Assembly: GCA_038064915.1 (NCBI GenBank)
Contig: JBBTSB010000004.1
Coordinates: 24,874 to 88,873, forward strand
DNA from: Patescibacteria group bacterium
Lineage (GTDB): Bacteria; Patescibacteriota; Minisyncoccia; 2-02-FULL-40-12; IGHO2-01-FULL-4-A
Length of the DNA stretch: 64,000 bases
Direction of reading: 5' to 3'
A program made the translations under genes and the position numbers. Positions within the stretch are counted from its first letter, which is position 1; every line of letters starts with the position of its first letter. Below are positions 8,135 to 62,504 of this stretch, one piece after another. The notes beneath the pieces are model-generated. The model did no database searches and was not told the origin of the DNA. It saw nothing but the letters and a program-made list of their open reading frames with translations.

Positions 8135-8172
8135 CTGGCACTCTTGACATGAGAGTGCCAACGCAGTAACCT
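8135..8172 (+). promoter_or_regulatory. CIRCE-like inverted repeat (HrcA operator) overlapping the lon promoter
   Basis: CTGGCACTC-N9-GAGTGCCAA with TTGACA inside the spacer, 17 nt, TAACCT; the ATG follows 6 nt after the -10. Confidence 0.5.
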
Positions 8173-37097: not shown

Positions 37098-37173
37098 TTG
37101 GCCAGATTGATCAGAACTATTGATACATCAAGCCAGCACGGAGCCCCCGATGCTGGAGAAGGAGAGATAAACT

Positions 37174-37389
37174 ATGTCGTATGGCATACTGACCCACGTT
37201 CCGTGTAACGAGCGGAACTTCGATACTCATGGCCGCGAGCTTCGCTGCGTGTCGAAGGCGGGACACCTCGATGACCAGATTGGACATCGGTTCGAGTACC
37301 TGAACGAGGCCGAGAAGCCTCAGCCCGAGCCTCCTGAGCCACCACGTGGATGGGCACAGATGGGCCCGACGATGGGCTGGCTCACGTAA
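37174..37389 (+). CDS. small hypothetical protein (71 aa) in GC-rich islet D
   Basis: SD AAGGAG 10 nt upstream; very high GC3; Pro/Glu-rich C-terminus. Confidence 0.4.
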   Translation: MSYGILTHVPCNERNFDTHGRELRCVSKAGHLDDQIGHRFEYLNEAEKPQPEPPEPPRGWAQMGPTMGWLT

Positions 37390-37424
37390 TTCCGTTCCAT
37401 TGAGCGGTCCAACCGCTCAACTGC

Positions 37425-37462
37425 GCCGCGGAGGGGAGACCTTCCGCGGCTGTTTTATTTTT
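37425..37462 (+). terminator. rho-independent terminator after islet D ORF
   Basis: GCCGCGGA ggggagacc TCCGCGGC followed by TGTTTTATTTTT. Confidence 0.55.
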
Positions 37463-37467
37463 CAAGT

Positions 37468-37494
37468 AAAAAAAACCGCTCATGGGCGGAAAAT
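37468..37494 (-). terminator. minus-strand intrinsic terminator
   Basis: minus strand reads CCGCCCATGAGCGG followed by TTTTTTTT. Confidence 0.45.
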
Positions 37495-37549
37495 AATATC
37501 TAGCAGGGGCGGGGGTAGGACAAAACACTGTACTACCCCGCGCCCCCTA

Positions 37550-37711
37550 TCAGGTACTGGTTGCCCGGGCTTCTGCGCCCGGTTTTCCCTCCGTTGTGTC
37601 GGGGTTGTCCTTTGGAGGCGGAGTGTACCGCCTCTTCACCTCAGCGTGACGGGCCTTCTTGCGAAGATCCGCCTCCCCGAGGTCATCCATGCCTTCTCCG
37701 TAAACGGGCAT
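37550..37711 (-). CDS. small basic/disordered protein (53 aa), convergent to the islet D ORF
   Basis: SD AGGGGGA 5 nt upstream; perfect TATAAT about 60 nt upstream on the minus strand; followed by long hairpins and a U8 terminator; below the 60-aa ORF-track cutoff. Confidence 0.3.
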   Translation of the reverse strand: MPVYGEGMDDLGEADLRKKARHAEVKRRYTPPPKDNPDTTEGKPGAEARATST

Positions 37712-37813
37712 GTTTCCCCCTACATTGTCGAGCTACTCGCGCGATAGCCCGAGATTGGCGAGTTTCTACGCGATAATCCATTATAGAACTGACATTATCA
37801 ACAAGTAAAGCGT

Positions 37814-37856
37814 TTGGCACTCACCCCTTGACAGTGCCAACGCATTTTACTAAGAT
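37814..37856 (+). promoter_or_regulatory. CIRCE-like HrcA operator overlapping the groES promoter
   Basis: TTGGCACTC-N9-CAGTGCCAA (consensus TTAGCACTC-N9-GAGTGCTAA) with TTGACA inside, 17 nt, TAAGAT. Confidence 0.6.
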
Positions 37857-37865
37857 ACACATACT

Positions 37866-38153
37866 ATGAAAATCAAACCACTTCATGACCGGGTGCTTCT
37901 CGAGGCGGTAAAAGAGGAGCGCAAAAAGGGCGGAATCATTTTGCCCGAGACGGTCGAAAAGGAACGTCCGCAGGAAGGTATCGTCATTGCCGTCGGTCCC
38001 GGCAAGTTTGACGAAGATGGGAAGCGTATGCCCATGACCCTCAAAAAGGGCGACAAGGTTTTGTTTACGAAGTATGGTCCATCAGAGGTCAAGGTGGACG
38101 ATAAGGAGTACTTGATAGCACGAGAAGACGATATTATAGCAGTAATTGAATAA
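37866..38153 (+). CDS. groES: co-chaperonin GroES
   Basis: 95 aa; MKIKPLHDRVL...IIAVIE. Confidence 0.95.
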   Translation: MKIKPLHDRVLLEAVKEERKKGGIILPETVEKERPQEGIVIAVGPGKFDEDGKRMPMTLKKGDKVLFTKYGPSEVKVDDKEYLIAREDDIIAVIE

Positions 38154-38155
38154 TT

Positions 38156-39877
<1,722 letters not shown>

Positions 39878-41457: not shown

Positions 41458-42390
41458 ATGGATATTCAAACAAAACCCAAGTCTGGTCCTCGCGACTTTT
41501 TTATACATTTACTGGGATTCGGGACGCTCTATGCAAGCGCGGTAAGTCTTATTTCACTTTGGTTTCAATACATCAATATCAAACTTCCTGATCCTCTGAA
41601 TCAATACTATTCATACGGATACGAGCAGCTTCGGGTGCCGATGGCGGTGCTTTTTGTGGTGTTTCCGGTATTTTTGTTTTTATCACGCTGGATGAACAGT
41701 AAGATCGCAGAGGATCCGGCAAGAAAAGAGCTTCGCATTTACAAATGGCTGGTGTACTTTACATTGTTTGTATCTGCGGTGACGGTAATCATCGATCTCA
41801 TCACGCTTATCTACAATTTTCTTGGAGGTGAGTTGACCGCACGATTCGGACTCAAGGTTCTCGTGGTGCTGATCGTAGCACTTGGCGTATTTGGCTATTA
41901 TCTGTGGAATTTGCGAGCTGATCTTGCGATGGCGCGAAGTAAACGCAAAGCGCTTTTTTGGGGAGCGATCGTGGCAATTGTCGGAAGCATCATTGCAGGA
42001 TTTGTGATTGTGGGTTCTCCTACGACAGCTCGAGCTCTGAGATTTGATGAGCGTCGAGTACAGGATTTGCAAAGCATCCAATGGCAAATTACCGATTACT
42101 GGCAGCGGACTGAAAAATTACCCACGGCACTTTCGGTGCTAGAAAATGAACTTGCTGGCTACACAAATCCTATGGATCCTGAAACGCAGGTTCTGTATGA
42201 GTATCGTGTAGTTAACCCACTCACGTTTGAATTGTGCGCAGTATTTACTACGGAAGGGACATGGCCGTCTAGGGAAAAATATCCTGCCGTTGTTCGTGTT
42301 CCGGAACAGTCGAATTGGAGCCACGAAGTCGGTCGTGCGTGTTTTGAAAGGACGATAGACCCCACACTCTACCCCAAGCCACTACGGTAA
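41458..42390 (+). CDS. membrane protein with 4-TM N-terminal domain and extracytoplasmic C-terminal domain (hypothetical)
   Basis: 310 aa; no confident family assignment. Confidence 0.45.
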   Translation: MDIQTKPKSGPRDFFIHLLGFGTLYASAVSLISLWFQYINIKLPDPLNQYYSYGYEQLRVPMAVLFVVFPVFLFLSRWMNSKIAEDPARKELRIYKWLVYFTLFVSAVTVIIDLITLIYNFLGGELTARFGLKVLVVLIVALGVFGYYLWNLRADLAMARSKRKALFWGAIVAIVGSIIAGFVIVGSPTTARALRFDERRVQDLQSIQWQITDYWQRTEKLPTALSVLENELAGYTNPMDPETQVLYEYRVVNPLTFELCAVFTTEGTWPSREKYPAVVRVPEQSNWSHEVGRACFERTIDPTLYPKPLR

Positions 42391-43559
42391 TGTTCGAGAT
42401 TCTCAAAAAAGATTCTAAATCAAACGCCCGTCTGGGCGTTTTGACGACACCGCATGGTGAGATCCACACGCCGGCGTTTTTGCCGATCGGTACCAAGGGT
42501 GCGGTGAAGGCGCTTACCAACGAAGAGCTCGTCGGCTTGGGCGCGGAAATCATCCTCGCAAACACCTACCACCTCATGGTGTCACCGGGAAGTGAAATCA
42601 TCCGCAAGGCAGGAGGGCTGCATAAATTTATGAATTGGGATCGGCCCATTTTTACGGACTCGGGTGGATATCAGGTGTTTAGTTTGGGTGAGAAAATCTC
42701 CTCCCGACCTCCCCTTAATGGTAAGGGGAGGAGCGAAGGGGATAGTGAAGTAGGAGCATTTAATAAAAAAATCAGCGAAGAAGGCGTGACGTTTCAATCC
42801 GGAATTGATGGGAGAGAGTTTACGCTTACTCCGGAGCATTCGGTGAAGGTACAGCAAGATCTCGGCAGTGATATCACTGTGGTGCTTGATGAATTTACAG
42901 GAGAAATTACCAATTATTTACGTGTAAAAGAAACCGTGGAGAGAACAACACGCTGGGCAAAGCGTTCCCGTGAGGCATTGAGAGGTGAAACCTCTCAATT
43001 GCAGTATGCGGTGGTGCAAGGGGCTATCTTTGAAGATTTGCGGAAACAGTCGGCGTTGGAATTGCGCGAAATGGATTTTGATGGGTATTGTATTGGCGGC
43101 GTGGCTGTGGGAGGAGAAACGAGTGAAGAGCAATACAAAGCAGTTGAGTACTCTCTTCCGCATTTGCCCGAAGACAAGCCTCGACATCTATTGGGCGTTG
43201 GTACTCCGGAGCAAATCATCGAAGCAGTAAAGCGCGGGATTGATACGTTTGATTGCGTCATTCCCACGAGAGAAGCTCGTCACGGGAAAATTTACTTAGG
43301 GGTGAAACCCCTAAACTCCGAATTGAGGGGTTTCACCCCTCAAACTTTGGACATCAGCAAAACAATTTTTAAAGAAGATTTTACTGCGCTCGATTCCACG
43401 TGTGACTGCGAAGCGTGTACGAAGTATACACGAGCCTATCTACATCATTTATTTAAATCCAGCGAAATATTGGCAATGCGACTACTCACGATGCATAATG
43501 TGAGATTTTATTTGCGACTTATGGAAAAGATACGGGAGGCGGTCGCCGCGTCGGGTTAG
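42390..43559 (+). CDS. tgt: queuine tRNA-ribosyltransferase
   Basis: GAVKALT, DSGGYQVFSL and zinc site CDCEAC...H; carries two extra in-frame segments relative to E. coli Tgt. Confidence 0.9.
   Translation: MFEILKKDSKSNARLGVLTTPHGEIHTPAFLPIGTKGAVKALTNEELVGLGAEIILANTYHLMVSPGSEIIRKAGGLHKFMNWDRPIFTDSGGYQVFSLGEKISSRPPLNGKGRSEGDSEVGAFNKKISEEGVTFQSGIDGREFTLTPEHSVKVQQDLGSDITVVLDEFTGEITNYLRVKETVERTTRWAKRSREALRGETSQLQYAVVQGAIFEDLRKQSALELREMDFDGYCIGGVAVGGETSEEQYKAVEYSLPHLPEDKPRHLLGVGTPEQIIEAVKRGIDTFDCVIPTREARHGKIYLGVKPLNSELRGFTPQTLDISKTIFKEDFTALDSTCDCEACTKYTRAYLHHLFKSSEILAMRLLTMHNVRFYLRLMEKIREAVAASG
42708..42731. repeat. GC-rich perfect palindrome inside tgt (in-frame insertion 1)
   Basis: CCTCCCCTTA atgg TAAGGGGAGG; lies within an extra ~22-codon segment (SSRPPLNGKGRSEGDSEVGAFNK). 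Confidence 0.6.
43298..43340. repeat. GC-rich perfect palindrome inside tgt (in-frame insertion 2)
   Basis: AGGGGTGAAACCCCT, 13-nt loop, AGGGGTTTCACCCCT; perfect 15-bp arms; encodes about 12 extra residues. Confidence 0.65.
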
Positions 43560-43583
43560 GACGGGCGACCGCTCTCGAGGGAG

Positions 43584-43766
43584 CTAGCGACGGGTGACGC
43601 TCATCAGACGAGGGAGGGGGATTTCGATTTCTCCTACGCCTGCAACGTCGACACGAACGCGGACCTGGGCGTTGCCGTTGTCCTTGTACCCTTTGTAGAC
43701 CACGGCGAGGGGTATCGTGACGACATCCCCCTCTTTTGCCTCCTGTAAGAACTGGTCGAGTATCAT
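43584..43766 (-). CDS. small beta-rich protein (60 aa), weakly CsrA-like, in GC-rich islet G
   Basis: SD AAGGAGGTG 3 nt upstream of ATG; GDVVTIPL...NAQVRVRVDV loosely resembles CsrA GDEVTVTVL...GNQVRIGV; the ORF track extends it antisense into the exonuclease gene, which is rejected. Confidence 0.4.
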   Translation of the reverse strand: MILDQFLQEAKEGDVVTIPLAVVYKGYKDNGNAQVRVRVDVAGVGEIEIPLPRLMSVTRR

Positions 43767-43811
43767 GCGCACCTCCTTGGACTTTATAGCTATATCATAT
43801 ATCATGGATGC

Positions 43812-44492
43812 ATGTCCAAACTTGTTTTTGATATAGAAACCATCGGTGAGGATTTTGATCTGATTGACGAGACCACCCAGGAAATTCTCACCAAGTACGA
43901 TGATGATATCGAAAAAGTAAAAAACGGCCTTGGATTTTCGCCGTTGACCGGACAAATCGTTTGTATTGGCGTGCTTGATGTTGAAAAAAACAGGGGCGCA
44001 CTGTATTATCAAGCGCCAGACGACGACTCCTCCTTCGCTAAAGCTTCGGAGGACGAGGCTTCTAATTTTAAATTTATCGTAGCCTCGGAAAAAGAAATGC
44101 TTGAAAAGTTTTGGCAGGGGATTACCGCGTACGATCAAGTAGTCAGCTTCAACGGTCGCGCCTTTGATGCTCCATTTCTTGCAATCCGCTCCGCCATCCA
44201 CAGCGTTCGTCCCTCAAAAAATCTCATTCCTTATCGTTACGCGACTGACACCAACCACATCGATCTCTACGATCAACTGACGTTTTATGGATCGAGTCGG
44301 AGCAAAGGGAATTTGCATATGTTTTGTCGGGCGTTTGGCATCAAAAGCCCGAAAGCTGACGGTGTCACTGGTGATGATGTGACGAGGCTCTTTAAGGAAA
44401 AAAAATACCTCGACATCGCCCGCTACAACGTCGGCGATCTCAAAGCCACGGCGGAACTCTACAAATATTGGAATGAATTTATTAGATTTTAA
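43812..44492 (+). CDS. DEDD-type 3'-5' exonuclease (PolB-exo/YprB-like RNase H fold)
   Basis: LVFDIETIG Exo I motif and downstream Exo II/III-like acidic residues. Confidence 0.6.
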   Translation: MSKLVFDIETIGEDFDLIDETTQEILTKYDDDIEKVKNGLGFSPLTGQIVCIGVLDVEKNRGALYYQAPDDDSSFAKASEDEASNFKFIVASEKEMLEKFWQGITAYDQVVSFNGRAFDAPFLAIRSAIHSVRPSKNLIPYRYATDTNHIDLYDQLTFYGSSRSKGNLHMFCRAFGIKSPKADGVTGDDVTRLFKEKKYLDIARYNVGDLKATAELYKYWNEFIRF

Positions 44493-47205
44493 AAAATATT
44501 ACCAGCAACTCAACAAAGAACAGCGTCTTGCTGTAGATTCAATCGAGGGGCCGGTAATGGTGATTGCTGGTCCCGGCACGGGGAAGACGCAGATATTGAC
44601 GCTCCGCATTGCAAATATTCTCCAGAGAACGGATATTCCTGCGGAGGCGATTTTGGCAGTGACATTTACGGAAGCTGGTGTGATTGCGATGCGAAAACGG
44701 CTTACTGAAATCATCGGCTCACAGGCCTACGAAGTCAATATCAATACTTTCCACGGCTTTGCGCAAAACGTCATACAAACCTACCCCGAATCATTTCCTC
44801 GCATCATTGGCTCGGTAAATATCACGGAAGCTGATCAGATCCGTATCATGGAAGAAATTTTGGAAGAAACGAAGGGATTGAAAATTTTGCGTCCTTTTGG
44901 TGACCGCTTGCACTATCTACGCGACGCTTTGCACGCGATTCAAACTCTCAAACGCGAAGGCCTAAGCGTGGAAGATTTTGAAAAAATCGTGGAACAAGCA
45001 GCAAAGGCCTATGATCCTGAAGAAATCAATACAAAAGCAGAGCGTATCAAACTGGAAAAACAAATAGAAAAAAACGCCGAGCTCGCCACGATTTACGGCG
45101 AATACGAGAAAAGATTAACCAAAGAAAAACTCTATGATTTTGACGATATGATCACCGAAGTGCTTGCAGCACTAATGACGAATGATGAATTACGAATGAT
45201 TTTGCAGGAGCAATATCAGTACGTGCTCGTAGATGAACATCAGGATACGAACAACGCACAGAATAGGATCTTGGAATTGTTGATGAGTTATCATGATGAT
45301 CCCAATCTTTTCATAGTAGGCGATGAGAAGCAGGCGATTTTTCGATTTCAGGGCGCGAGTCTCGAAAACTTTCACTATTTTAAAAATAAATTTCCGGAAG
45401 CAAAGCTCATTACGCTCACTGAAAATTATCGTTCTACGCAATCAATTCTCGATGCGGTAGCTACAAAATTAAGAGCACTTGCTGGACACAAGGAAAAAAA
45501 AATTCAACTTCTTGAGGCCAGTGATTCAGATAGCGAACTCTTTACAATTGCCAAGCTCATTAAAGCAAATGAAAACAGCGCTGTGCTCTATCGCGATAAT
45601 CGTGATGTAATCCCACTTGCGAGGATGTTTGATAAGCTCGGCATTCCCTACCACATTGAGTCTGACCTCGATATTTTGACTGATCCCGACATCCGTAAGT
45701 TGCTTCTCATTTTTCATGCCATTGAGCAGTTTGACAAAAAAGTCATCTACCTTGATCTTTGGGGAGTCGATGCTTTTGAGGCAGAACAGCATCTTCCTCG
45801 AATCCAGAAGCAACTTTCTCTGTGGAAGACCGTGGCGTACAACAAATCGCTCTTGGAACTGTTCGATACGGTGGTGCAGGAGTCGGGTCTTCTCAAGTCT
45901 ATCTTAGCTCGGCCAGATGCAGTCGAAGCCATTGAAAAACTGTCGGTTCTTCTCGATCAAATCCGTCGCATGCTCGAGGTGCATCCGGGAGCGAATTTGC
46001 AGGATTTTTTGGCGCAGCTTGACCGCATGGATCGCCATAGACTATCCATCAAGGGCGCACTAGCCGGTGCGCATCCAGGAAAAGTACGTCTCATGACCGC
46101 ACATCGCTCCAAGGGTCTTGAATTTGACTATGTCTATGTTATCAATGCGTATGATGGACATTGGGGGAATCGAAAGCGAGTAGAGAAATTAAAGTTATTG
46201 ATACCAGAACAACAAGGCGCAGATGATGATCGCAATCTTTTTTATGTCGCTCTAACGCGCGCTCGCAAAGAAATCACTATTAGCTACGCAAAGATGTCTC
46301 TCGATCAGCGTGAGCAGATTCCATCACAGTTTATAGGAGAACTCAAGCAAGAATTAATCGAAAAAATCGAAGAAGAAAAGTTTGACAAACAAATACTATT
46401 TTCACCATCACGGCACACGGGAGCGACGGATATCAAGAATTTGGATTTTGTCAGAGAATTATTTAAGAAACGGGGTTTTGCGGTTACACACCTGAATAAT
46501 TACATCGAATGTCCCTGGAAGTATTTCTTTGTAAACCTGCTGCGCGTCCCCAAGGCCCCCGAAGCTCCGCAGATGTATGGAACAGCAGTGCATGCGGCGT
46601 TGAGCGATATTTTGAATGCCGAAACAAAATCAAAAACATATCTCATTAGTCAATTTAAAAAGCACTTAGCTGTTCAACACCTAAGTGTACATGAGCGGGA
46701 GGATTATGAGGAGCGCGGAGTGGAGGCGTTAGGGAAATATTGGGATGAATATCATGCAACATGGACAAATCCAGTGCTGACGGAGTATAAAATAAAGGGT
46801 GTAGAACTGACGTCTGAAATCTTGCTTACGGGGAACTTAGATAAAATAGAATTACTCAATGACCACGATGTAATTGTAACTGATTTCAAGACAGGCAAAC
46901 CAAAAAGCAGAAACGAAATTATGGGGAAAACTCGCACAGGTGATGCAAGCTATTATCGACAACTGGTCTTTTATAACTTGCTTCTGAATAAACACAAGAA
47001 CGGCATGTATAAAATGCAAGCAGGGGAATTGGATTTTGTTGAACACGGGAGGAAAGAGCAATTTCGAATTACGAATGACGAATGTCGAAATTTGGAAAAA
47101 GAAATTAAAAGAGTTGCAAACGAGATACTAAATCTCAAATTCTGGAACAAAAAATGTGATGAAAAAAACTGCGAATGGTGCAGTTTGAGGGGGATGATGA
47201 AGTGA
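44473..47205 (+). CDS. UvrD/PcrA-type helicase fused to a C-terminal Cas4/AddB-like PD-(D/E)xK nuclease with Cys cluster
   Basis: GPGTGKTQ Walker A, DEHQDTN, TAHRSKGLEFDYV helicase motifs; C-terminal DFKTGK...YYRQL nuclease core and Cys at C...C-x4-C-x2-C. Confidence 0.8.
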   Translation: MNLLDFKKYYQQLNKEQRLAVDSIEGPVMVIAGPGTGKTQILTLRIANILQRTDIPAEAILAVTFTEAGVIAMRKRLTEIIGSQAYEVNINTFHGFAQNVIQTYPESFPRIIGSVNITEADQIRIMEEILEETKGLKILRPFGDRLHYLRDALHAIQTLKREGLSVEDFEKIVEQAAKAYDPEEINTKAERIKLEKQIEKNAELATIYGEYEKRLTKEKLYDFDDMITEVLAALMTNDELRMILQEQYQYVLVDEHQDTNNAQNRILELLMSYHDDPNLFIVGDEKQAIFRFQGASLENFHYFKNKFPEAKLITLTENYRSTQSILDAVATKLRALAGHKEKKIQLLEASDSDSELFTIAKLIKANENSAVLYRDNRDVIPLARMFDKLGIPYHIESDLDILTDPDIRKLLLIFHAIEQFDKKVIYLDLWGVDAFEAEQHLPRIQKQLSLWKTVAYNKSLLELFDTVVQESGLLKSILARPDAVEAIEKLSVLLDQIRRMLEVHPGANLQDFLAQLDRMDRHRLSIKGALAGAHPGKVRLMTAHRSKGLEFDYVYVINAYDGHWGNRKRVEKLKLLIPEQQGADDDRNLFYVALTRARKEITISYAKMSLDQREQIPSQFIGELKQELIEKIEEEKFDKQILFSPSRHTGATDIKNLDFVRELFKKRGFAVTHLNNYIECPWKYFFVNLLRVPKAPEAPQMYGTAVHAALSDILNAETKSKTYLISQFKKHLAVQHLSVHEREDYEERGVEALGKYWDEYHATWTNPVLTEYKIKGVELTSEILLTGNLDKIELLNDHDVIVTDFKTGKPKSRNEIMGKTRTGDASYYRQLVFYNLLLNKHKNGMYKMQAGELDFVEHGRKEQFRITNDECRNLEKEIKRVANEILNLKFWNKKCDEKNCEWCSLRGMMK

Positions 47206-61598: not shown

Positions 61599-62504
61599 TT
61601 GGATAGAAATTTGGCATTAGAATTTGTAAGAGTCACCGAAGCCGCGGCAATAGCCGCGGCTTCATGGATTGGGAAGGGCGACAAAAATGCCGCAGATAAG
61701 GCGGCGGTTGATGAGATGCGTGATCGCTTTAATCAGATTGATTTCAAGGGCCGTGTCGTTATCGGTGAGGGAACAAAAGACGAAGCGCCGGAATTGTTTG
61801 AAGGTGAATTGCTTGGCACAGGCAAAGGATCTGAAATGGATATTGCAGTGGATCCCTTGGAAGGCACGACAAATACTGCATTCGGGTATCCCAATGCCAT
61901 GTCAGTCATTGTGGCCGGTGCAGCGGGTTCGCTCATGCCTATGCCGAAGGGTAAGTTTTATATCGAGAAGATTGCCGTTGGACCTCAAGCTGCAAAAGTC
62001 ATCGATCTGGAAGCACCCGTCAAAGTAAATATAAATAAAGTCTCCAAAGCTCTCGGCAAATCGCCTCAAGAAGTCACAGTTGTGGTCTTGGAACGCGATC
62101 GACATAAGGCATTGATCAATGATCTCCGCAAAGCTGGTGCTCGCGTACGCTTGATAAATGCCGGCGATTTGGCTCCTGGCATCGCAACATGCTTTCCGGA
62201 TTCGGGTATCGATATGGTCATGGGCACGGGTGGGACACCCGAAGCAGTCCTTGCCGCCGCTGCTATCAAAATCATGGGCGGGCAGATTTTCGCTCGTTTT
62301 CCTGAAGAAAAAAAGATTTTTGATGCAAATGATCTTGCAAAAGGAAATCAGCTTACATTTACCGCCACTGGCATCATTGAAGGTCCGCTTTTGAAAGGTA
62401 TAACTATATCAGATCATATTATCACGACCCATTCCGTCGTCATGCGTTTAGCCTCAAAAACTATTCGATACATAACTACTCACCACCATGCCAAGTCTCA
62501 ATGA
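61599..62504 (+). CDS. glpX: fructose-1,6-bisphosphatase class II
   Basis: LALEFVRVTEAAAIAAASWIGKGDKNAADKAAVDEMR GlpX N-terminus; TTG start codon. Confidence 0.85.
   Translation: MDRNLALEFVRVTEAAAIAAASWIGKGDKNAADKAAVDEMRDRFNQIDFKGRVVIGEGTKDEAPELFEGELLGTGKGSEMDIAVDPLEGTTNTAFGYPNAMSVIVAGAAGSLMPMPKGKFYIEKIAVGPQAAKVIDLEAPVKVNINKVSKALGKSPQEVTVVVLERDRHKALINDLRKAGARVRLINAGDLAPGIATCFPDSGIDMVMGTGGTPEAVLAAAAIKIMGGQIFARFPEEKKIFDANDLAKGNQLTFTATGIIEGPLLKGITISDHIITTHSVVMRLASKTIRYITTHHHAKSQ

Follow-up and report, generated by a model that had tools for sequence, protein, structure and literature searches.

The DNA analysed here is a stretch of 64,000 nucleotides (nt), called the window hereafter, from a metagenome-assembled genome (MAG) of a Patescibacteria group bacterium (NCBI GenBank assembly GCA_038064915.1, contig JBBTSB010000004.1, positions 24,874 to 88,873 of the forward strand), and the subject is the gene tgt together with a short palindromic segment lying inside its coding sequence, which probably is a copy of a dispersed hairpin repeat designated family A. 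The protein contains the TGT domain (PF01702) and belongs with bacterial Tgt; it aligns with Z. mobilis Tgt at E=3e-102 over residues 11-386, in two stretches (11-100 and 127-386). In an alignment of 38 Patescibacteria Tgt proteins, D90, D288, C338, C343 and H369 are invariant and C340 is nearly so, the catalytic Asp residues D90/D288 and the Cys/His ligands of Zn corresponding to D102, D280 and the Zn site of the Z. mobilis enzyme (TDSGG, FDC, CxCxxC...H). The ATG of tgt overlaps the stop codon of an upstream DUF5671-like open reading frame (ORF) in the sequence TAATG. An identical protein (100%) was found in NCBI, Logan and ENA assemblies, that is in three sources and on two contigs, and is named Tgt of a 'Patescibacteria group bacterium' MAG at NCBI.

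Between the two aligned stretches, 26 residues of the window protein (101-126) face 3 residues of Z. mobilis Tgt, giving about 23 extra residues, in good agreement with the 22 or so that an earlier note on this DNA had counted, and the reading frame is open across the whole insert as that note had claimed. The extra codons themselves are real, with boundaries (Table 1) differing from the span 42697-42765 proposed at the time. The whole of these 69 nt had been ascribed to a palindromic insert; this holds for an element of ~36-50 nt, the remainder (...GAFNKKI) being homologous to the PFNVKI-type loop extension common to most Patescibacteria Tgt. Modelling of the protein had also been suggested, and AlphaFold2 run with the 38-sequence alignment gave a mean predicted local distance difference test (pLDDT) of 86.6 and a predicted template modelling score of 0.86, with pLDDT <50 and no secondary structure at residues 96-122; the insert is consequently predicted to form a disordered loop within an otherwise confident Tgt fold. 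We infer that this loop would lie away from the catalytic and tRNA-binding surfaces. The tryptic peptides expected from the region are SSRPPLNGK and GRSEGDSEVGAFNK.

The perfect 10+4+10 palindrome CCTCCCCTTA-atgg-TAAGGGGAGG is present exactly where it had been reported. The window has no other match to it with up to 3 mismatches, none of 100 dinucleotide shuffles produced it, and an imperfect outer stem, 42696-42702 pairing with 42737-43, prolongs it. The extended hairpin folds at -26.8 kcal/mol as RNA (z=-3.3) and -15.3 kcal/mol as DNA (z=-4.3), values equalled by no shuffle. On the other hand, the description of the segment as far more GC-rich than its gene proved wrong: GC content is 0.507 at 42697-42765 vs 0.481 for tgt, 38% of the 69-nt windows in tgt are at least as GC-rich, and for the 24-nt core (0.583) the same or a higher value is reached by 23% of 24-nt tgt windows. 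Since the GC content of the segment is near that of tgt, GC-richness was ruled out as an argument for an origin outside this genome. Rfam yielded no match at gathering thresholds, tRNA genes were not found in the window, and a terminator scan flagged neither the insert nor the hairpin near the 5' end of tgt, so that a known RNA family and an intrinsic terminator were both discarded. An intein, an intron or a translational bypass was likewise rejected, as the frame is open, 24-69 nt is too small for an intein and Rfam gave no match.

When one genome per GTDB species was scanned for the core CCTCCCCTTA-N(2-8)-TAAGGGGAGG, at least 133 copies of this 20-nt core were obtained in at least 120 genome stretches; the window copy matches it exactly with a 4-nt loop. 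Among the matches listed, to which the counts, host labels and locations in this paragraph refer, the loop measures 3 nt in 93 of 133 copies and 4 nt in 10 of 133. Two bases from the core stands a tag, TAACCCCTCC(C), which is found on one side only in 88 of 131 copies, on both sides in 19 and on neither in 24. Because nothing is conserved beyond the tag in the 131 copies with full flanks, the family unit is taken to be ~36 nt (12 codons with a 3-nt loop) of the form TAACCCCTCCC-NN-CCTCCCCTTA-NNN-TAAGGGGAGG, the tag being sometimes mirrored on the right; the consensus is TAACCCCTCCCNNCCTCCCCTTANNNTAAGGGGAGG. The window copy has the one-sided arrangement (TAACCCCTCCC-NN on its 5' side and AG(C) on its 3' side), with 10 of 13 tag positions and AGC after the core when compared with a tag consensus drawn from the 88 one-sided copies, and copies in L031, L076 and L093 match it in the flanks CCTCCCGA and AGC. 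The stretch GAAGGGGAT in its 3' flank, the outer-stem partner of 42696-42702, could represent a right tag (consensus GGGAGGGGTTA) that has decayed. A second hairpin, CCCCTCTTA..TAAGAGGGG, lies within 45 nt of 19 of the 131 copies. Host labels include Geobacteraceae/Desulfuromonadales, Nitrospirota, Thermodesulfovibrionia, Clostridia and Bacteroidales as well as Saccharibacteria, Uhrbacteria, Doudnabacteria, Gottesmanbacteria, Parcubacteria and others; all matches but one come from MAGs and most copies are intergenic or outside long ORFs. Viral contigs carry family A as well: it was found in 24 IMG/VR stretches, a single 17-kb contig having as many as four copies. The 64-kb window holds one copy; other genomes hold 2-8 among the loci examined.

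In-frame copies of family A, each in a host protein confirmed by Pfam, were found in RuvB (L018) and PrmC (L036) of Uhrbacteria, Fmt of Doudnabacteria (L059), XseA of Parcubacteria (L061), a YggS-like protein of Thermodesulfovibrionales (L057), and TsaD (L125) and a PMT_2 membrane protein (L052) of genomes labelled Gammaproteobacteria. The peptides NPSxPPLxLRGG, PPLxVRGGxGEL and SPYxKGR correspond to the open frames of family-A DNA on both strands, the other frames running into TAA. Literature searches by sequence strings and by topic (palindromic insertions in Patescibacteria or the candidate phyla radiation (CPR), DUF559) retrieved no description of the family, which is weak evidence as subscription journals are poorly covered; the strings CCTCCCCTTA, TAAGGGGAGG, TAACCCCTCC, GGAGGGGTTA, LRGGEGEL and NPSQPPL returned unrelated papers only, mostly on eukaryotic primers or promoters.

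The same Tgt site is filled in some relatives and empty in others. The loop following FSLGEK varies from 0 to ~45 residues across the 38 Patescibacteria proteins, and the DNA of seven relatives was compared at codon level. The closest of them (L001, 85% amino acid identity), which comes from an independent Logan assembly, has equal length and the same palindrome with a single base differing in the loop, whereas L002 (74% identity) is without the palindrome and shorter by exactly 8 codons, i.e. the 24 nt of the palindrome; L006 has no insert, as is the case for other close Tgt proteins. The comparison with orthologues that the earlier note had put forward, in which the point at issue was equal length without palindromic DNA, thus does not refute an insertion, and the notion of palindromic DNA placed in frame into tgt is supported by these relatives together with the dispersed repeat family. 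In L003 and L004 (67-69% identity), CCCTCCCGA-CCTCCCCTTA-ctt-TAAGGGGAGG-AGCAGA occupies the same site, the tag there being AAACCCCTCCCGA. As the loop differs in length, the right arm is read as LRGGAE in L003/L004 (3-nt loop ctt) and as KGRSE in the window (loop atgg), and the homology consequently resides in the DNA and not in the peptide. A second hairpin is found just downstream in both L003 and L004, where a symmetric indel between the two versions keeps the palindrome. The genes L167 and L168, whose products share 78-83% amino acid identity with those of L003/L004, have a short LGEKREANQVKIT and no hairpin. In a neighbour-joining tree, hairpin-bearing proteins form the groups window+P0002, P0006+P0008, nested among empty-site sequences, and P0005+P0020, this last pair carrying variants. 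Element-bearing Tgt thus fall in at least two, possibly three, separate clades of the tree, which implies that this loop gained the element at least twice, apparently independently. The AAAATC direct repeats at 42693-98 and 42762-67 were considered as a target-site duplication and rejected, the right copy lying in a conserved FN[VK]KI motif that is also present in Tgt proteins without the palindrome.

Conservation of the element as nucleic acid is high. Between the window and L001, identity within the element reaches 41 of 42 nt (third positions, 13 of 14), compared with a third-position identity of 0.51 gene-wide; between L003 and L004, ~44 consecutive nt are identical by eye over tag, first hairpin and flank in genes of 0.75 nt identity. 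The element is conserved far beyond synonymous sites and its stems are preserved well above neutral expectation, so that it is either subject to purifying selection as DNA or RNA or homogenised against other copies.

Table 1. Positions of tgt, its palindromic insert and the other hairpins discussed, in window coordinates.
Feature	Position	Strand	Description
Family-B hairpin, intergenic	37400..37420	+	TTGAGCGGT-cca-ACCGCTCAA; same sequence as the variant in the tgt genes of L001 and L005
tgt (queuine tRNA-ribosyltransferase)	42390..43559	+	389 aa; PF01702; host gene of the insert
5'-proximal coding hairpin	42422..42441	+	AAACGCCC-gtct-GGGCGTTT; codons for SNARLGVL
Degenerate 5' tag of family A	42695..42707	+	AATCTCCTCCCGA; 10/13 match to family consensus TAACCCCTCCCGA
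23 extra codons vs E. coli / Z. mobilis Tgt	42699..42767	+	SSRPPLNGKGRSEGDSEVGAFNK; alignment gap, predicted disordered loop
Family-A hairpin core	42708..42731	+	left arm 42708-42717, loop atgg 42718-42721, right arm 42722-42731; encodes PPLNGKGR
3' flank of family A	42732..42744	+	AGCGAAGGGGATA; one-sided copies usually have AGC on the right
Family-B hairpin in tgt	42977..42999 (21-nt motif 42978-98)	+	ATTGAGAGGT-gaa-ACCTCTCAAT; encodes LRGETSQ
Family-B hairpins in tgt, two ('insertion 2')	43295-315, 43323-43	+	TTAGGGGT-gaa-ACCCCTAA and TTGAGGGGT-ttc-ACCCCTCAA; encodes LGVKPLNSELRGFTPQ

Palindromy in tgt extends beyond this insert. When perfect hairpins with a stem of at least 8 and a loop of at most 12 were counted, the 1.17 kb of tgt held 5 of the 21 present in the window and every other gene at most one. 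In 1000 synonymous-codon shuffles of tgt, the number of perfect hairpins with stems of 8 bp or more averaged 0.23 and did not exceed 2, so that the five observed are not a by-product of the protein sequence; 1-4 perfect hairpins were found in each of the 10 Tgt orthologues examined. The 5'-proximal one, ~30-60 nt into the ORF, is kept in position: 9 of 11 orthologues have a perfect stem of 8 bp or more there, and at least 6 distinct stem sequences are represented (nt ~29-62 of tgt in L001, L002, L005, L006, L007, L167, L168 and L193), at a chance of 0.002-0.025 per sequence under random synonymous codons. A position kept with varied stems and such a low chance points to selection on structure at that site. 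Speculatively, tgt could be a hot spot either through dispensability, insertions being tolerated, or through regulated translation coupled to the overlapping upstream gene. Further palindromes were noticed in the orthologues: a 19+19 AT-rich perfect palindrome ATCGGTAATAAGTTATCAT|ATGATAACTTATTACCGAT at nt 613-650 of L003 tgt, CCTCCCCC-nnn-GGGGGAGG at two different Tgt sites (nt 565-583 of L167 and nt 329-347 of L193), and TCGAGAGGACT-tc-AGTCCTCTCGA at nt 948-971 of L001 tgt, in the conserved FREDFSPLD. At the other end of the gene, GC content steps up sharply to 0.60-0.73 (60-nt windows) at 43510-43750, vs 0.46 window-wide, from the last tgt codons into the region of a minus-strand ORF at 43584-44201.

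Three of the five tgt hairpins belong to another motif, family B (TTGAGNGGT-nnn-ACCN'CTCAA, 21 nt or 7 codons), with 4 matches in the window against 0.24 expected. At the LRGETSQ site, orthologues have TTGAGCGGT-(cca/gaa)-ACCGCTCAA (LSGxTAQ), a compensatory A:T to C:G change in which R to S and S to A replacements leave the palindrome perfect; C:G stands against the A:T of the window in L001, L005 and L007. The two hairpins of insertion 2 together form a larger inverted repeat with 21-nt arms, which is not found in L001, L004 or L006 and is found in L003 with compensatory G:C to T:A changes. The C:G variant TTGAGCGGT-nnn-ACCGCTCAA occurs in 39 metagenome contigs (L128-L166), about half of the copies being in frame as LSGxTAQ in LepA, MetRS, MurD, PurL, a SIMPL protein, a UvrD-like helicase and Tgt, and in L136, L152, L157 and L166 it forms the middle of perfect palindromes of 40-60 nt with locus-specific outer arms. 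The intergenic copy of the window lies directly 3' of a small ORF and is followed by a GC-rich terminator-like hairpin (GCCGCGGA..TCCGCGGC) with a T run, in a region (~37100-37750) that has no long ORF and looks, by eye, more GC-rich than the window average. In the UvrD-like helicase of the window (ORF 44473-47205), LNAETKS (TTGAATGCCGAAACAAAATCA) is encoded at 46612-46632 where the L135 homologue has the palindrome TTGAGCGGTGAAACCGCTCAA (LSGETAQ), the two sites being of equal length with 11 of 21 nt identical; the window site could be either a decayed family-B copy or the ancestral state.

As regards a gene that could act on family A, a 125-aa ORF (PF04480 DUF559, E=8.5e-36) lies in L031 between two direct copies of the element, and its last codons, LTPPDLPLL*, are encoded by the family-A tag and left arm. 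Among the matches listed, a DUF559 homologue was found in 6 of 120 family-A loci and in all six at 9-221 nt from the element, the +/-250 nt around elements accounting for ~8% of the searched DNA. Among the 120 DUF559 proteins most similar to it in the protein database, at least 44 have an element-encoded C-terminus of the type ...LTPPxLPLx* or ...NPSxPPLx*; the family-A hairpin thus often abuts the DUF559 stop codon, tag first. VSR, DUF559 and DUF2726 have been placed together in a PD-(D/E)XK clade, of which a group I intron homing endonuclease is also a member (Steczkiewicz et al. 2012, PMC3424549). No DUF559 homologue was detected by tblastn in the 64-kb window or in the viral loci. As a hypothesis, DUF559 would mobilise the family-A hairpin, to which it is seen to be adjacent. 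In L031 (2618-4120), the intact DUF559 gene with its two flanking copies of the element is preceded by a 220-bp tandem array (3.8 copies, 96% identical) whose unit comprises a fragment ending ...ALISAAVTGKIDVRNWQP, then element A, then a CCCCCTCTTAGGATAAGAGGGGG hairpin and then a 5' DUF559 fragment. The fragment ending ...ALISAAVTGKIDVRNWQP recalls, as we read it, the C-terminus of type I restriction S subunits.

Other inverted repeats of the window lie apart from both families. TGGCACTCT-n7-AGAGTGCCA (8136-8160) and TTGGCACT-n11-AGTGCCAA (37814-37840) resemble the CIRCE heat-shock operator (TTAGCACTC-N9-GAGTGCTAA); the latter stands just upstream of an ORF starting at 37868, which we take to be groES from reading its sequence, followed by a 546-aa ORF at 38237. 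A perfect palindrome with an 11-bp stem, GAAGCCGCGGC-aata-GCCGCGGCTTC, at 61638-61663 in ORF 61599-62504 encodes EAAAIAAAS and probably derives from this Ala-rich peptide rather than from an inserted element.

Among known systems, Rickettsia palindromic elements (RPE) come close to family A; RPE-1 measures ~100-150 bp and is, to our knowledge, restricted to Rickettsia. RPE are described as palindromic repeats lying in frame in Rickettsia housekeeping genes, which apparently stay functional, and also between genes (Ogata et al. 2000, as cited in PMC3733652). In both cases a palindromic insert sits in frame at a permissive position of an otherwise intact ORF and the family is also intergenic, but family A is set apart by size, its unit being ~36-50 nt, and by host, as it is found in Patescibacteria, in many phyla and in viral contigs. 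Repetitive extragenic palindromes (REP) offer a second comparison. They are linked to REP-associated tyrosine transposases (RAYT, or TnpA(REP)) and thought to be mobilised in trans (PMC3733652; PMC8266576), intragenic REPs tagged with GTAG or CGTC are known in Opitutus terrae, Thauera and others, often in repair- or RNA-related genes (Di Nocera et al. 2013, PMC3733652), and over half of the intragenic inserts are dimers or groups, which encode 20-30 amino acids (PMC3733652; PMC8266576). Family A resembles them as dispersed hairpins of 20-40 nt with a tag at one end, single or as dimers, mostly extragenic and in some cases in frame. It differs in that neither the consensus TAACCCCTCCCNNCCTCCCCTTANNNTAAGGGGAGG nor the window copy contains GTAG, CGTC or a complement of these, the tag being TAACCCCTCCC, and in that the adjoining gene, where there is one, codes for a DUF559 Vsr-like PD-(D/E)XK endonuclease; no RAYT gene was noticed near family A, no systematic search for Y1 transposases having been made, and DUF559 was the only recurrent neighbour noticed. 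Miniature inverted-repeat transposable elements such as Correia/NEMIS and ERIC are small non-autonomous repeats of 70-300 bp that are able to overlap ORFs and have terminal inverted repeats and target-site duplications (PMC3184786, PMC10969869). Family A shares with them the small size and the capacity to overlap ORFs, but is a single short hairpin for which no target-site duplication was found. In organelles, the GC clusters of yeast mitochondria are palindromic repeats within genes. For Nematomorpha mitochondria, perfect inverted repeats of up to 284 bp in coding sequence are described (PMC6649704). These are likewise perfect inverted repeats that are translated, but they belong to organelle genomes, are much longer and are unrelated in sequence.

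Taken together, the segment at 42695-42744 is probably an in-frame, partly decayed copy of a cross-phylum REP-like hairpin repeat, family A, the counterpart of the Rickettsia elements. Its entry into tgt would have taken place at the DNA level, most likely in the form of a folded single strand on which a nuclease or transposase specific to the element acted in trans, by analogy with the proposal made for REP; the DUF559 Vsr-like endonuclease is a candidate. Survival of the insertion could be explained by its landing in a disordered surface loop, by the presence of one stop-free frame (NPSxPPLxLRGG, here PPLNGKGR because the loop is 4 nt) and by a net change in length that is a multiple of three, the element then being translated as a Pro/Gly-rich loop that would have no role of its own. 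Several points weigh against this reading. The window has a single family-A copy and no DUF559 gene, and the putative mobility is deduced only from the distribution of copies. A simple insertion does not account for all differences between filled and empty alleles, which yielded no clean target-site duplication or exact excision footprint; L003/L004 appear to hold a pair of neighbouring insertions together with local divergence. That tgt should hold 5 of the 21 perfect hairpins of the window is not expected of a random selfish element. The element, in L003/L004 with its loop, is conserved to a very high degree, which is odd for junk and fits a cis function. Finally, the association with DUF559 is one of adjacency and concerns one DUF559 subfamily, mostly from outside Patescibacteria. 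A larger scheme, in which family A is a non-autonomous partner or footprint of selfish DUF559 genes, similar to REP/RAYT on a different enzyme, is put forward tentatively; the elements would have spread across phyla with viral contigs as possible vehicles and colonised the gene-dense Patescibacteria in frame, and the tgt hairpins would be kept by selection or arm-to-arm correction, resulting in a hot spot.

The points on conservation lead to the main alternative explanation, in which selection maintains the hairpin as a cis-acting structure of the tgt mRNA or DNA. It might then influence the stability of the mRNA, the pausing of ribosomes or the coupling to the overlapping gene upstream, and its likeness to repeats would be secondary, for instance that of a co-opted element. 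This explanation would account for stems conserved far above synonymous expectation, for the five perfect hairpins in tgt against 0.23 expected with 1-4 in all ten orthologues, for the 5' coding hairpin present in 9 of 11 orthologues with at least 6 stem sequences at a chance of 0.002-0.025 each, and for the compensatory changes in family B. We nevertheless regard it as unlikely, given that the hairpin at the first insertion site is absent from close, intact-looking orthologues (L006, L167, L168; P0007, P0013, P0018 and others), that the same 36-nt sequence with its one-sided tag also occurs in unrelated genes, intergenic DNA and viral contigs, and that no Rfam family matches. Autoregulation would be one form of it. 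Tgt recognises U33-G34-U35 in a seven-membered loop, and since the hairpin loops are of 3-4 nt without this feature, binding of Tgt to its own mRNA hairpins is unlikely. A cis role is compatible with co-option of a family-A element. Compensatory double changes that leave palindromes perfect could also result from template switching or quasi-palindrome correction, by which the palindrome would have been made locally in a fast-evolving loop with no imported element, and the many different perfect palindromes at three variable Tgt sites (the 19+19 of L003, the symmetric indels of L003/L004) speak in the same direction. Such an origin is improbable, as it leaves unexplained both the 36-nt consensus with a non-palindromic tag shared with Geobacter, Nitrospirota, Clostridia and viral contigs and the identical core in RuvB, PrmC, Fmt and XseA.

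Selection on the inserted peptide itself, for instance as a new interaction or localisation loop with incidental palindromy of its codons, seems very improbable: although the loop after FSLGEK is expanded in most Patescibacteria Tgt and P0002 shares a conserved peptide with the window, lineages differ in the frame in which this DNA is read, the loop is predicted to be disordered and ranges from 0 to ~45 aa with no conserved motif other than the DNA-derived PPL..[RK]G, and protein sequence alone does not yield hairpins. As the source is a MAG, as are the sources of all family-A matches listed but one, an artefact of assembly or binning was considered too, but it can be practically dismissed, the identical protein being present in three sources on two contigs, the same insert in the independent Logan assembly of the 85% identical relative, and the frame being preserved in an otherwise intact gene.

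Read as a probable family-A copy, the tgt insert brings in-frame palindromic repeats, best known from Rickettsia and a few REP hosts, to housekeeping genes of Patescibacteria (CPR). If this is true, a testable role would follow for DUF559, and a source of loop insertions in the proteins of these Patescibacteria would be identified. It would also call for caution in annotation, as Pro/Gly-rich peptides of the NPSQPPLxLRGG type would be read-through repeat DNA and not protein motifs. The excess conservation of the stems, in turn, allows junk and selected structure to be tested against each other.

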